From positions 23,370 through 87,369 of the forward strand of contig CAYZZH010000001.1 in assembly GCA_964483005.1 (NCBI GenBank): a stretch of 64,000 nt of DNA, given 5' to 3'. Under the pieces are notes generated by a model. That model was not told where the DNA came from. It ran no database searches and saw only the letters and a program-made list of their open reading frames with translations. Positions 3,721-59,530 of the stretch are shown in pieces (the stretch's first letter is position 1; every line of letters starts with the position of its first letter). The translations under genes and the position numbers were made by a program. The stretch comes from an uncultured Candidatus Saccharibacteria bacterium (GTDB lineage Bacteria > Patescibacteriota > Saccharimonadia > Saccharimonadales > UBA4665).

Positions 3721-3800
3721 GCCTGGCCCACATGGACCTCCCGCCAAATTGACCCAACCGAAGGTCACCGGTAAAGTGCCCCTTTTGTCAAAAAGGCACG
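3721..3800 (-). repeat. Copy C3 of a ~95-nt structured intergenic repeat family (minus-strand orientation, pointing toward dnaA)
   Basis: The reverse complement CGTGCCTTTTTGACAAAAGGGGCACTTTACCGGTGACCTTCGGTTGG matches C2 at 35 of 43 aligned positions. Shared core GGTGACCTTCGGT (plus-strand 3757-3769). Confidence 0.6.
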
Positions 3801-4382: not shown

Positions 4383-4603
4383 CCTGTACTCACTTTTTGA
4401 CGAAAGAGGTGTGATGCTGAGCCACGTCCACTTTTTTCAACCGGAGGGGTTGCAAGTGAAGCAAAGGTGAAAAAGTGCTTGTGCACTTTTTCCCTTGCAA
4501 ACGCCTGGAGGGCGAAAAAAGAGGGCGTGGCTCAGGGTGTGACTACAAGCGACCTTCGGTTATGCTATGGCGCTTGCTCCCGCCTTTCTGACAAAAAAGT
4601 GAA
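4383..4603 (+). repeat. Copy C1 of the intergenic repeat family, interrupted by the 119-bp element at 4417-4535
   Basis: CCTGTACTCACTTTTTGACGAAAGAGGTGTGA ... GCGACCTTCGGTTATGCTATGGCGCTTGCTCCCGCCTTTCTGACAAAAAAGTGA aligns with C2 (38663-38761). Confidence 0.65.
4417..4535. mobile_element. MITE-like non-autonomous palindromic element, copy A
   Basis: Terminal inverted repeats CTGAGCCACGTCCACTTTTTT / AAAAAAGAGGGCGTGGCTCAG. Flanked by GGTGTGATG (4408-4416) and GGTGTGACT (4536-4544). About 85-90% identical to copy B over the shared ~65 nt. Confidence 0.65.
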
Positions 4604-14739: not shown

Positions 14740-14776
14740 CTACGCTCCCCCGGAGGGAACCGGAGGGGGAGCGTAG
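14740..14776. repeat. 12-bp-stem GC-rich hairpin inside the IS remnant
   Basis: CTACGCTCCCCC / GGGGGAGCGTAG. Its loop/stem carries AACCGGAGGGG (14758-14768), the same 11-mer found in both MITE-like copies. Confidence 0.7.
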
Positions 14777-38637: not shown

Positions 38638-38662
38638 CTATGACAGACAAGAGAGCCAACAG

Positions 38663-38761
38663 CCCTGACTCACCTTCACTTTTTCGACGAAAGGGGCGTC
38701 TTGCAGGTGACCTTCGGTCGGCCTGTGGCGCTTGTTCGCCTCTTTCTTACAAAAAAGCGAG
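38663..38761 (+). repeat. Copy C2 (uninterrupted) of the ~95-nt structured intergenic repeat family
   Basis: CCCTGACTCACCTTCACTTTTTCGACGAAAGGGGCGTCTTGCAGGTGACCTTCGGTCGGCCTGTGGCGCTTGTTCGCCTCTTTCTTACAAAAAAGCGAG. Internal stems GAAAGGGGCG/CGCCTCTTTC and GGCG/CGCC. Confidence 0.65.
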
Positions 38762-38813
38762 TTCGGGTCAGGCTAAAAGCGACACAACAGTCAACAGCGC
38801 AGGCTCAAAGGCT

Positions 38814-56750: not shown

Positions 56751-57453
56751 GGCGTGGAAGGGGCATGTGCGGGAGGCGGCGGGGCGGCCGGAGTTTGTGC
56801 ACCACGAGTGGTTTGTGCGGTGGCACCTGGAAATTGTGGAGCAGCTGGCGCTGGAGCTCTGCGACAGGTATCCAGAGGCAGACAGAGAGCTCGTTGAGGT
56901 GATGGTGTGGTTGCACGACTACGGCAAGATTCTTGTTGGGCCGACGGAGAGCGATGCATTTCGGGCGAAACAGTCCGCTTCTCGCTCCGCCGTACCTGCC
57001 GTACGTCTGCGCTCCGATGCTCCTGTTTCATCCCAAACTGCATCACTCTCCGTCACCCCAGACCCTCCAGAAAATGAATACACAACGACCATTTCGGCTG
57101 GGAGGGCGAAATTGACAGAGGTGGGTTTTGCCCCGGATTTTGTGGAGCGGGCTGTTTTGGGCATTGAGACCATGGATAAAAAGATGGAAATTGACCTGCG
57201 TGAGGTGCCGCTGGAAGTGCAGATTGTGGCGAGTGCCGACGGGTGTTCGCACATGGTTGGGCCTTTTCTAAGCTTGTACTGGCGGGAGCACCCAGAGCTT
57301 TCCACCGAAGAGCTTTTGGCTGCCAATAAAGCGAAACTGGAAAAAGACTGGAACCGCAAAATCACGCTGCCCGAAGCGCGCGCCGCCTTTGCCGCTCGCC
57401 ACGAGTTTTTGCTCGAACAAACCGGCAAGCCGCCAGACTCGTTTTTGCGGTAA
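56734..57453 (+). CDS. HD-domain phosphohydrolase
   Basis: 239 aa. VMVWLHDYGK (HD motif). Later ASADGCSHM. Confidence 0.55.
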   Translation: MHPNIEAWKGHVREAAGRPEFVHHEWFVRWHLEIVEQLALELCDRYPEADRELVEVMVWLHDYGKILVGPTESDAFRAKQSASRSAVPAVRLRSDAPVSSQTASLSVTPDPPENEYTTTISAGRAKLTEVGFAPDFVERAVLGIETMDKKMEIDLREVPLEVQIVASADGCSHMVGPFLSLYWREHPELSTEELLAANKAKLEKDWNRKITLPEARAAFAARHEFLLEQTGKPPDSFLR

Positions 57454-57477
57454 GAGTAAGAATACCCAGTGTTGTTT

Positions 57478-57552
57478 CTGACCCATGTCCTCTTTTTTCA
57501 CCTTTGCTTCACCTACCAACCCCTCCGGTTAAAAAAAGAGGACATGGGGCAG
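57478..57552. mobile_element. MITE-like non-autonomous palindromic element, copy B (75 bp)
   Basis: CTGACCCATGTCCTCTTTTTT / AAAAAAGAGGACATGGGGCAG (20 of 21 complementary). Perfect 9-bp direct repeats GTGTTGTTT at 57469-57477 and 57553-57561. Confidence 0.7.
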
Positions 57553-57578
57553 GTGTTGTTTTAATCGGTTGGTCGCTC

Positions 57579-57587
57579 TGCTACAAT
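57579..57587 (+). promoter_or_regulatory. Extended -10 element upstream of the 57608 gene
   Basis: TGcTACAAT. AAAGGAA SD follows. Confidence 0.4.
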
Positions 57588-57607
57588 TGAGGTAAAGGAA
57601 AAGCACT

Positions 57608-59530
57608 ATGGCACGCAAGCTACCCAACACCGACCCAGAAGAAATCAAGGCCGAAAAACACGTCGCCGAAATTATGGGCGAGGCGCACGATGCTGGTGGT
57701 AGCGCGACAGAACAGCCAAGGCCAACAGATCACACCGACGACGCTGCAAGGCCAGACAGTGGTCAGCCGCCACTTGGCGACCAGGCTGCTGAGGCAGACC
57801 TTGACATGGCAAAACTGCCCGAAGATTTCAAAACCACTGCGAGTACCGCAGACGACCCCCAAACTACTGCTGCAGTCGACGATATATTGCGCCACGAGGC
57901 CGAAAACGCCCTGCCCGACGCCGAAGCCGAGGCCGACGACAGCCCGTCAGCGGCAGTTGTGATGAAACCATCGTTTTTTGAACGGGTTAAAAACGGTTTT
58001 TATCACTGGTGGACAAACCCCTGGAAGCGCTATGGGACAATCGCCGCCCTGCTACTGCTATGTGTCGTGGTTTTTGTGGTGCCCAAAACACGCGCCATGG
58101 TTTTTAACGCAATTGGTGTACGCACCAGCGTTATGGTGACGGTGTACGACGGGGCAAGCAAATTACCGCTTAAAAACGCGCAGCTGCACGTCGACGGACG
58201 TGTTGCCAAAACAGACGAAAAAGGCGAGGCAAAGGTCACGGGAGTGCGACTCGGCACTCAGCAAGTGACGGTAAGTAAACCGGCCTTTGCCAGTAGCAAA
58301 AAAACGGTGCAGCTTGGCATGCGTATTACCGACATCGGCGAAGTCACCCTTAAGCCAGTTGGCGTACAGCTAACCTACCAGCTGAGCGACTATCTTTCGG
58401 GCAAGCCACTGGTCGACGTAGAACTAAGCAGTGGTGAGGCAACGGCAAAGTCAGACAAAAAAGGCAAAGCCGTTATTACACTGGCGCCGAGTGAGGTCGG
58501 CGACACAACCATTCGTTTTGCCAAAAAAGGGTTTCGTGACGAAAAAGTCGCAGTCACTGCCCTTTCGTCGGCCACAACAGAACAAAAAATGGTTCCCCAG
58601 GCTCGGGCAATCTACATTAGCAAAGAAAGCGGCAAATACGACGTGTACAAAGTGTACATAGACGGTAAATCGCGCGAGGTTTTGTACCCAGGAACAGGGC
58701 TAGAGCTACAGACTATTACCACGCTGCCTGCGCCTAGTGGCGAACATGTGGCGGTTGCCTCGACTCGTGACGAAAAACGCAATAAAGACGGCTACCTGCT
58801 CACCGCGCTCAACGTTGTCGATGTCGAGTCTGGCAGTGCCGTTAACCTCGACTACGCCGAGCAAATTACGTTGCTTGGGTGGCGGGGAGATGTGCTACTG
58901 TACCAACAAATAGTCGCCGGAGCGAGCGCCGCCAACCCTGCTCGTCAAAAGCTGATTGCTTACGATGTCGGCGCAAACAAACGCCTGCAGCTTGCGGCGG
59001 CCAACTATTTTACAAACGTCCAGCTTATTGGCAATACCCTGTACTACGGTGTGTCGTCGACCGACCCCAACGCAAAAGACGCGTTTGCTCGCATAGACGT
59101 CGACGGTACCGCCAAAAAATCTCTGTATAGCGGTGATGTGTGGTCGGTTATGCGCACCGAGTACACAAAGCTCAAGCTGCAGACACCCGACAAATGGTAC
59201 GAATACACGCTTGGAGCAACCAGCCCAGCGGTATCTACCCCGGCTGATGAGTATCGGTTTAGGACCTATCTCGACAGCCCAGACGTAAAACAGGCTGTTT
59301 GGGTTGATGTACGCGACAGTCGCGGGGTGTTAATGCGCCACAATGTGGCAGATCATACCGAAAAAGAGCTGGTGACGCAGCGCAACATGCAGGCCCCGTT
59401 GTATTGGTTGGGCGAAAACACGGTGGTGTTTCGAGTTGCAGGGGCGAGTGAAGTGGCCGACTATGTGGTGAGTACAGACGGGGGAGCCGTTAAAAAGATT
59501 GCCGACGTGAGTCTAACTGGCATGCGTTAG
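57608..59530 (+). CDS. Membrane-anchored protein with an acidic N-terminus, Ig/PEGA-like beta domains and a beta-propeller-like C-terminal region
   Basis: 640 aa. TM IAALLLLCVVVFVV. VTVYDGASKLPLKNAQLHVDGRVAKTDEKGEAKV. No catalytic motif recognised. Confidence 0.45.
   Translation: MARKLPNTDPEEIKAEKHVAEIMGEAHDAGGSATEQPRPTDHTDDAARPDSGQPPLGDQAAEADLDMAKLPEDFKTTASTADDPQTTAAVDDILRHEAENALPDAEAEADDSPSAAVVMKPSFFERVKNGFYHWWTNPWKRYGTIAALLLLCVVVFVVPKTRAMVFNAIGVRTSVMVTVYDGASKLPLKNAQLHVDGRVAKTDEKGEAKVTGVRLGTQQVTVSKPAFASSKKTVQLGMRITDIGEVTLKPVGVQLTYQLSDYLSGKPLVDVELSSGEATAKSDKKGKAVITLAPSEVGDTTIRFAKKGFRDEKVAVTALSSATTEQKMVPQARAIYISKESGKYDVYKVYIDGKSREVLYPGTGLELQTITTLPAPSGEHVAVASTRDEKRNKDGYLLTALNVVDVESGSAVNLDYAEQITLLGWRGDVLLYQQIVAGASAANPARQKLIAYDVGANKRLQLAAANYFTNVQLIGNTLYYGVSSTDPNAKDAFARIDVDGTAKKSLYSGDVWSVMRTEYTKLKLQTPDKWYEYTLGATSPAVSTPADEYRFRTYLDSPDVKQAVWVDVRDSRGVLMRHNVADHTEKELVTQRNMQAPLYWLGENTVVFRVAGASEVADYVVSTDGGAVKKIADVSLTGMR

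Follow-up and report, generated by a model that had tools for sequence, protein, structure and literature searches.

In the genome of an uncultured Saccharibacteria bacterium, a 75-bp element at 57478-57552, which we denote copy B, is very probably a MITE, a non-autonomous DNA transposon, that has lost roughly 45 bp of its interior and was inserted with a 9-bp duplication of its target. Judged from its surroundings and from those of its relatives, the insertion point of copy B does not appear to be random and points to promoter-anchored insertion: copy B is a clean example of a rule that recurs across families and genomes, by which elements ending in CTGACCCAC lie 29-30 nt upstream of a -10 promoter box. 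As an element, copy B is of an ordinary and well-known kind; the position rule looks like a new form of transposon behaviour. Positions are those of the whole 64,000-nt stretch of DNA that was analysed (the window), which corresponds to C1:23370-87369 of an assembly of 1.198 Mb in 67 contigs (52% G+C, 96% completeness). The relatives of this host genome are metagenome-assembled genomes of Candidatus Saccharimonadales (Saccharibacteria, TM7). Contigs of the assembly are denoted C, genomes of relatives G and loci in relatives L.

Copy B consists of two 21-nt arms that lie 33 nt apart and are paired at 20/21 positions (95% complementary), a complementarity that an earlier, sequence-only reading had reported and that direct inspection of both arms confirms (Table 1). 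The arms stand out in the window, where a search for the arm pattern that tolerated at most 3 mismatches gives four occurrences, compared with 0 in 100 shuffles; the four matches are both arms of copy B and both arms of a longer element, copy A. The flanking 9-mer GTGTTGTTT has 3 occurrences in the 64-kb window, 2 of which are the flanks of copy B. The element is too short to have any coding capacity, and an Rfam search with it matched zero families. As the sequence-only reading had it, copy B is placed between an HD-domain gene and the promoter of the gene at 57608, the latter recognizable by TGCTACAAT. It starts 24 nt past the stop codon of the HD-domain gene and ends 55 nt ahead of the ATG at 57608, and the 154-nt spacer between the two genes is made up of 15 nt, the duplicated target, copy B and the promoter region. 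The observation made on copy B in that reading is correct.

Table 1 Features of the copy B locus and the full-length copy A (positions in the window)
Feature	Position	Strand	Remarks
Copy A, full-length 119-bp member	4417-4535	+	Nested in an older MITE with the same kind of terminus
HD-domain gene, 239 aa	56734-57453	+	PF01966; upstream of copy B
Left copy of duplicated target, GTGTTGTTT	57469-57477	.	Equals 57553-57561 at 9/9
TIR arm 1, CTGACCCATGTCCTCTTTTTT	57478-57498	+	15/21 against nt 1-21 of the 24-nt TIR in the G052 IS4-like element
Copy B interior, 33 nt	57499-57531	-	Minus-strand reading is the family's left subterminal part, AACCGGAGGGGTTGGTAGGTGAAGCAAAGGTG
TIR arm 2, AAAAAAGAGGACATGGGGCAG	57532-57552	+	Promoter-facing end of copy B
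Right copy of duplicated target, GTGTTGTTT	57553-57561	.	With the next T, forms the U-rich tail GUGUUGUUUU 3' of the hairpin
Extended -10 box of the 640-aa gene, TGCTACAAT	57579-57587	+	Same TGCTACAAT upstream of the orthologue in L070
640-aa gene, CarboxypepD_reg-like	57608-59530	+	Downstream of copy B; promoter adjoins the element

Copy B belongs to a family of elements whose typical member is 119 bp long. Searches of the whole assembly with blastn and iterated nhmmer located the family at approximately 18 loci on 13 contigs, with elements of 75-120 bp, a census that bears out the proposal of a MITE present here in a second, shorter copy. Twelve copies of 118-120 bp share 89-100% identity with copy A. 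Besides copy B, the other loci comprise a copy cut by a contig end (C10), a 5'-truncated copy (C14), a diverged copy of 114 bp (C2) and fragments at C16 and C3:53836. Relative to their flanking genes, family copies are oriented in a ratio of 8:4, a split that would not be significant. Copy A is itself nested in an older element; when copy A and one 9-mer were excised in silico, the length that remained came within approximately 1 nt of that of a sister repeat at 38655-38770. Among 40 relatives, recognizable family copies were present only in the congener G007, which has two, at 76-80% identity and one of them with an 8/9 duplication. From the census here and the G007 copies together, we conclude that the 119-bp family is older than the host species and expanded within it.

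The 75-bp length is unique to copy B among the family loci, and its origin can be read from its longer relatives. Reversed copy B resembles copy A, as had been claimed for it, at 89-90% identity across roughly 50-53 nt. It is nearest to a subfamily marked by GTTGGTAGGTGAAGC (C4, C27, C22 and C13:31171), with 97.7% identity over 44 nt; the same identity, 97.7%, is found when its interior is compared with the copies at C4:15224 and C27:8482. Read on the minus strand, copy B has the left 58 nt of the family joined directly to the final 15-16 nt. The roughly 45 nt that are absent hold a central AAAAAGTGC-TTGT-GCACTTTTT hairpin and a CCTGGAGGGCG block. This missing stretch is bounded by GTGAAAAAG and GCGAAAAAAG, its boundaries fall within GAAAAA repeats, and the junction is held by the T-run at 57493-57498 in arm 1. 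Slippage or recombination between the two GAAAAA runs, before or after insertion, would account for such a deletion; in such an event the central hairpin would be lost along with the right subterminal part, and both terminal repeats would be spared.

The perfect 9-bp flanks of copy B, which the sequence-only reading had interpreted as a target-site duplication, are one instance of a pattern in the family. Of 13 complete family copies, 5 have flanking 9-mers that agree at no fewer than 8/9 positions at the exact junction (9/9 for C47, C4 and copy B; 8/9 for C31 and C13:25438), and 7 do so when a one-base offset is allowed, which adds C8 at 9/9 and C27 at 8/9; the flanks of copy A match at 7/9. 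When flanks were paired across different copies as a control, a match of 8/9 was never reached. Because the 9-mers vary between copies, they represent duplicated targets and not element sequence, and the family flanks together with those of the IS4-like relatives described below establish the copy B flanks as a real target-site duplication. With terminal inverted repeats (TIRs) in all its members, target-site duplications of constant length and variable sequence, no transposase gene and many dispersed copies, the family has features by which MITEs are recognized, including ends like those of an autonomous insertion sequence (IS), in this case an IS of genome G052.

The link to autonomous elements came through genome G354, in which a terminus hit lies 45 nt past the stop codon of a DDE_Tnp_1 transposase. 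A search across the order with this transposase protein as the query yielded a group of IS4-like elements of 1.1-1.3 kb, whose transposases match PF01609 and are approximately 340 aa long. The intact member, in G052 (L136:412-1573), spans 1162 bp, is bounded by a perfect 24-nt TIR, CTGACCCACACTCACTTTTTGCCA, and codes for a transposase of 339 aa; in G240, a genome from the taxonomic family of the host, an IS copy contains two stop codons, and a relative in G197 (L138; 1320 bp) has a 9/9 duplication. A sister group of ISs ends in CTGAACCACCC, and in it L142, L143 and L145 have 9/9 duplications. Among the ISs examined, L140 has an 8/9 duplication. The transposases contain a Y(2)R(3)E(6)K motif (YqeRfeiEeafkdmK in L136 and YakRfeiEehfkdiK in G354) that can be aligned to Y319-K333 of the Tn5 transposase, which was the only relative found to have been solved. 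The best NCBIfam model for the transposase is that of the IS4 family (NF033591), with 99.3 bits against a curated cut-off of 152; as the score lies under this cut-off, we name the group IS4-like and not a confirmed member of the family. A PF13006 search across the order was uninformative.

The MITEs match these ISs at their ends. Identity to the first 21 nt of the G052 TIR is 14-15/21 for copy B and 16-17/21 for the 119-bp family, and identity to the same TIR is 19/21 for a sister MITE family and 20/20 for a MITE in G271. The match is confined to the ends, the interiors of the 119-bp family and the IS being unrelated. By sequence comparison, then, the MITEs have ends in common with the ISs and did not arise by simple deletion from any of the IS copies found. 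An IS4-like transposase supplied in trans would cut the target with a 9-bp stagger, and gap repair would then duplicate GTGTTGTTT. A tblastn search of this assembly with the G354 transposase gave zero matches; since a transposase of the matching group is absent from the assembly, mobilization in this genome is something that we infer, and the MITEs here may now be fossils. Two sets of candidate partners were rejected: PF01609/DDE_5 insertion sequences at C8 and C25 of the assembly have ends of the type TTACGCAAAA, not CTGACCCAC, and the PF01609 insertion sequences of the MITE-bearing genomes G159, G174, G390, G043, G007 and G271 also have different ends.

The 119-bp family is one of several with this type of end, CTGACCCA(C/T)GTCC. 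More than 20 further elements in the genome, of 100-195 bp, start with CTGACCCAC and have unrelated interiors; they sort into at least three more families, also with approximately 9-bp duplications. A 95-nt intergenic repeat at 38663-38761 belongs to one such CTGACCCAC family, and the element in which copy A is nested is another member. Beyond the host genome, the terminus pattern CTGACCCACRTSCA is present in 11/401 sampled Saccharimonadales genomes (10 genera, several families) and in 9/28 congeners; a reversed-pattern control gave 6 hits across the order and 0 in the genus. Occurrences of CTGACCCACRTSCA for which the DNA was fetched are MITE-sized pairs or solo ends, with the exception of the one in G354, which adjoins a truncated IS. 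Searches of phage collections, plasmid collections and viral contigs were all negative.

Elements with this terminus sit at a preferred distance from promoter-like sequence. Counting offsets outward from the element, with offset 1 as the first base of the flanking target copy, copy B ends at 57552, the TG of the extended -10 box occupies 57579-57580 and the hexamer TACAAT 57582-57587, so that the hexamer starts at offset 30, with 29 nt between; a Shine-Dalgarno-like AAGGA follows the box, and then the ATG at 57608. Using a threshold of at least 5 bits for -10-like hexamers, which are motif calls and not mapped transcription starts, and an offset window of 28-33, which was chosen with a value of approximately 30 already in mind, we find a hexamer on one side of 18/34 elements in this genome and of 9/14 in the 119-bp family, compared with an expectation of 11% over all possible 9-bp targets in 506 MITE-free spacers (binomial P ~2e-9). 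The offset in this genome is usually 30 or 31, often with a TGn extension, and the background outside 28-33 is approximately 2 hits per 3-nt bin. The same spacing, mostly exactly 30, is present in 13/18 MITEs from 8 other genomes, and the full-length ISs L136 (G052) and L138 (G197) have a -10 hexamer at exactly offset 30; it was not seen in any of the 5 examined CTGAACCACCC-ended ISs (L141-L145). The flank between the target and the -10 box is not conserved, and the box is therefore not part of the element. Likewise, 30 reconstructed empty sites contain no information except at the -10 region, and their target 9-mers have no consensus. A hybrid promoter with a -35 box supplied by the element was ruled out, as the element end, 29 nt from the -10 box, is too far away. 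In line with these controls, one of the -10 boxes lies approximately 11 nt upstream of a tRNA-like sequence (tRNA identity being judged by sequence).

Such a pile-up of insertions at one distance could arise because the transposase chooses these sites or because other insertions are lost. Selection certainly filters insertions in this compact genome, in which approximately 82% of the sequence is coding by a rough gene call: 15/17 family copies are intergenic, 8 of them 2-28 nt past a stop codon, and the pile-up could be increased if only those insertions survive that leave promoter and upstream gene unharmed. At C31, C13:25438 and C14, moreover, the target touches the stop codon, leaving no alternative position. 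If insertion were near-random and selection spared only insertions between the upstream stop codon and the -35 region, however, elements with free spacer on their far side should not be held to one distance, yet the offset is 30 +/- 1 at copy B, with 15 nt of free spacer, at C47, with 19 nt, and at C13:2783 and C4:38887, each with more than 180 nt. The offset histogram has a sharp peak and no shoulder at larger offsets, and the offset is identical in 8 other genomes and in full-length ISs. We therefore consider survivorship unlikely as the whole explanation; the free far-side spacer at many copies and the lack of a shoulder in the peak favour active target choice, and targeting of some kind is the probable cause of the spacing.

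How such targeting would work is a more tentative matter. An IS4-like transposase might pick its target by reading the promoter, either as an extended -10 element or as sigma-bound RNA polymerase holoenzyme, and not by the sequence of the target, a proposal that we regard as nearly evenly poised, if slightly on the doubtful side. The cue may be the TGnTAnnnT element itself or docking on the promoter-bound RNA polymerase holoenzyme; insertion would fall approximately 42 bp before the point at which transcription is inferred to begin, and the duplicated target would keep the promoter whole. If the transposase does home to promoters, this would be a new form of target selection for bacterial DDE transposons and would parallel, in bacteria, promoter-tethered integration of the Ty3 or Tf1 type. 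Mobile DNA would then also have a safe haven, which would explain how it persists in 1-Mb symbiont genomes without killing genes, and the transposase could serve as a promoter-proximal insertion tool.

Parts of this behaviour have precedents. The IS4 family (IS10/Tn10, IS50/Tn5 and IS231) makes 9-bp duplications, and derivatives such as MIC231 are mobilized in trans; IS10 and IS50 targets have a loose symmetric consensus inside the 9-bp target. The elements described here resemble this family in their CTG-starting ends, as in IS50 and IS10, in their 9-bp duplications and in a DDE transposase with the Y(2)R(3)E(6)K motif. In contrast to IS10 and IS50, however, the transposase is only approximately 340 aa long, the targets have no consensus and all that they have in common is a -10 box approximately 21 nt beyond the target. 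Position relative to an initiation signal is the hallmark of the retrotransposons Ty3 and Ty1, at Pol III genes, and Tf1, at Pol II promoters, the integrases of which are tethered by transcription factors, as has been demonstrated experimentally. The likeness lies in a fixed, short distance to the initiation signal that is independent of the local target sequence; unlike those systems, the mechanism proposed here is derived from positions alone.

As a small mobile element, copy B has close parallels in other bacteria. MITEAba12 of Acinetobacter baumannii is non-coding, 111-114 bp long and has TIRs that match an IS (PMC6382973); its 9-bp duplications are kept by 40% of copies, and its copies are mostly intergenic, with possible effects on adjacent genes (PMC6382973). 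Its parent, ISAba12, is co-resident, its movement has been observed and AT-rich targets are preferred (PMC6382973). The present family shares with it small size, lack of coding capacity, IS-type TIRs, 9-bp duplications in a fraction of copies and an intergenic location. For MITEAba12, however, no fixed promoter distance is reported; the IS that matches the elements here is IS4-like and absent from the genome, and copy B, unlike MITEAba12, is a 75-bp deletion derivative. Correia elements (CREE/nemis, Neisseria), ERIC, RUP and bcr1 are likewise small, abundant intergenic inverted repeats that form long hairpins when transcribed (PMC3184786). These elements are often near promoters or gene ends, and compensatory stem changes have been reported for bcr1 (PMC3184786). 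Correia elements duplicate TA and can bring their own promoters (PMC3184786), whereas the duplications of the 119-bp family are 9 bp long, and its copies lie upstream of a promoter that is resident at the site and not brought in by the element. Literature searches returned no relevant description of MITEs in Saccharibacteria or Patescibacteria and none of promoter-anchored IS targeting.

The paired arms also raise the possibility of a role at the RNA level. As single-stranded RNA, copy B with its flanks has a predicted folding energy of -32.0 kcal/mol on the plus strand (z = -3.9) and -36.7 kcal/mol on the minus strand. Transcripts that run past the stop codon of the HD-domain gene would contain the hairpin. 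From the stem and tail, it is possible, if rather doubtful, that the 21-bp stem with GUGUUGUUUU terminates HD-gene transcripts or stabilizes their 3' ends. In that case the downstream promoter would be insulated; it is itself undamaged, as its -35 region is retained through the duplication of the target. Against such a role, the 33-nt loop is atypical and too long for the limit set in a scan with a terminator consensus, which left the hairpin uncalled, and the U-tract that follows the stem here is missing in other family members.

Pairing is maintained across the family. In an alignment of 13 copies, 97.8% of cells are paired, and 9 pairs have changed on both sides, 8 of these in the terminal helix (8/23 pairs), with observed values unmatched in 500 shuffles; copy B's own doubly changed pair is C:G to T:A at position 9. 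This co-variation fits selection on the hairpin, the fitting of both ends to one transposase, or hairpin repair, and it does not discriminate among them. It could nevertheless be taken, together with the very stable hairpin and the absence of a transposase of the matching group from this genome, as a sign that copy B is a host-selected repeat of the REP/REPIN or terminator type, with incidental 9-mers, and not a product of DDE cut-and-paste transposition. REP-type elements moved by Y1 transposases are not known to leave target duplications, whereas 9-bp duplications are present here, each copy duplicating a different 9-mer, and at the ends there is a match to the TIRs of IS4-like elements, which have the same 9-bp duplications. 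Co-variation, for its part, would likewise arise where a single transposase must accommodate both ends or where hairpin mismatches undergo repair. We consider an origin as a host-selected repeat to be very unlikely and retain the interpretation of copy B as a transposed MITE.

The sequence-only reading had further pointed to an 11-mer, AACCGGAGGGG, that copy B shares with a hairpin at 14740-14776 in an IS256 remnant, and had taken this as a hint of a shared origin or binding motif. The 11-mer is indeed there, at 14758-14768, and occurs in the window at 4439, 14758 and 57520(-); genome-wide, its 12 occurrences comprise 10 family copies, the hairpin at 14740-14776, which is itself single-copy in the genome, and a family remnant at C3:53843. 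Even so, a common origin or binding motif is negligibly probable and the match is due to chance: random 119-mers of this genome have a mean of 6.9 exact 11-mers in common with the window (97% have at least one), copies A and B have 11 other 11-mers in common with unrelated window sites, nothing around the 11-mer at 14758 aligns, a PF00872 search of the genome gave a 70-aa remnant as its only match, and the matching autonomous elements are IS4-like, not IS256.

The locus itself could be followed in further samples and relatives. Both flanking proteins recur, unaltered in sequence, in assemblies from five samples (JGI 3300045330 and 3300045331, DRR685534, SRR23702521 and SRR32217605). An empty allele of copy B would read GAATACCCAGTGTTGTTTTAATCGG, with a single GTGTTGTTT; the insertion is present in all five same-strain assemblies, in which the sites are filled or broken and none is empty, and when metagenome contigs were searched for the two flanks joined together, as an exact pattern, there were 0 hits. 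In the nearest other lineage, the HD protein has at most 76% identity and the gene order at the locus is different. Relatives with HD proteins of 72-76% identity have an extra gene, for a membrane protein of 208-217 aa, before the homologue of the 640-aa gene, with gaps of 18-52 nt between genes; this membrane-protein gene is absent from the host genome, and because of the extra gene at the locus the spacers of the relatives are not alignable to that of copy B.

Copy B is unchanged in both JGI contigs, and the Logan contigs break inside the element, as assemblers do at hairpins. Hairpins of this kind matter for annotation, as short-read assemblies are interrupted by them and they could be wrongly taken for terminators or RNA genes; the elements also flag probable promoters in a phylum with few mapped promoters. 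A repeat at contig ends that starts with CTGACCCGCATAC, the interior of which was found neither in the assembly nor in congeners or metagenome contigs, may be a long palindromic MITE that stopped the assembler.

Between the HD-domain gene and the homologue of the downstream 640-amino-acid gene, three loci from relatives (L023, L064 and L070) carry a membrane-protein gene of 208–217 amino acids, as compared with window 57454–57607; this gene is missing altogether from the genome under study (tblastn, best E-value 0.008). The HD gene itself contains an in-frame palindromic insert of 43 codons, with a fold energy of −58 kcal/mol, which is absent from the otherwise similar 196-amino-acid homologues P0011, P0022 and P0026. 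The insert is a distant relative of another MITE family, with ends TTACGCAAAA that match IS701-like elements on contigs C8 and C25. It looks like a translated MITE relic comparable to the Rickettsia palindromic elements.

A sister group of IS4-like elements with ends CTGAACCACCC, represented by loci L141–L145 from five other Saccharimonadales genomes, produces perfect 9-bp duplications. None of the five has a −10-like box at 28–33 nt from the element end, and promoter anchoring seems to be limited to the CTGACCCAC group. A three-copy structured repeat in the window is apparently a further MITE family whose ends are of the CTGACCCAC type; the alignment of this repeat covered 38655–38770 and the flanks of copy A (the 119-bp family member). 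Copy A sits nested within one of the repeat copies. A cobalamin riboswitch (RF00174, 43213–43349, 34.8 bits) is the window's sole Rfam hit that exceeds the gathering score.

Several MITE families in this genome, as in the Fam2-type elements, have interiors composed of short GTCATCCCGACCGAAGTGGAGGGATC-type hairpin modules, and these modules recur in MITEs of four other Saccharimonadales genomes (G023, G015, G021 and G002).

The repeat content of this 1.2-Mb genome is unusually high. At least 13 groups, each of three to eight contig ends, break off inside shared repeats, whose termini are distinct (ACGTGAATCAAGAAACCC and CAGGGCAATCGCACTTACC are examples). The repeats are insertion sequences present in multiple copies, and the bin lacks their interiors. 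Five contig ends have CTGACCCGCATACACTTTCTACCCCGTTGACCCTTTTGTAAAAATAAGCAAGCACTTTTTCTGGCG in common, and the interior of this repeat is found nowhere in the assembly. The repeat is either a long perfect-palindrome MITE that halts the assembler or the end of an unassembled insertion sequence.

Repeats and palindromic elements in the window and on other contigs (C) of the genome
Feature	Location	Detail
Palindromic insert	window 56935–57063	129 nt, inside HD gene
Structured repeat, three copies	window 38663–38761, 3721–3800, 4383–4603	95 nt; copy A within 4383–4603
Fam2-type elements, examples	C11:16159–16284, C4:38887–39011	hairpin-module interiors
Contigs with ends in repeat groups, examples	C22, C3, C34, C39, C48, C7; C24, C27, C36, C58, C8	
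Contig ends with CTGACCCGCATACACTTTCTACCCCGTTGACCCTTTTGTAAAAATAAGCAAGCACTTTTTCTGGCG	C5:1–65, C49:1–65, C67:1–71, C43:8806–8868, C26:1–55
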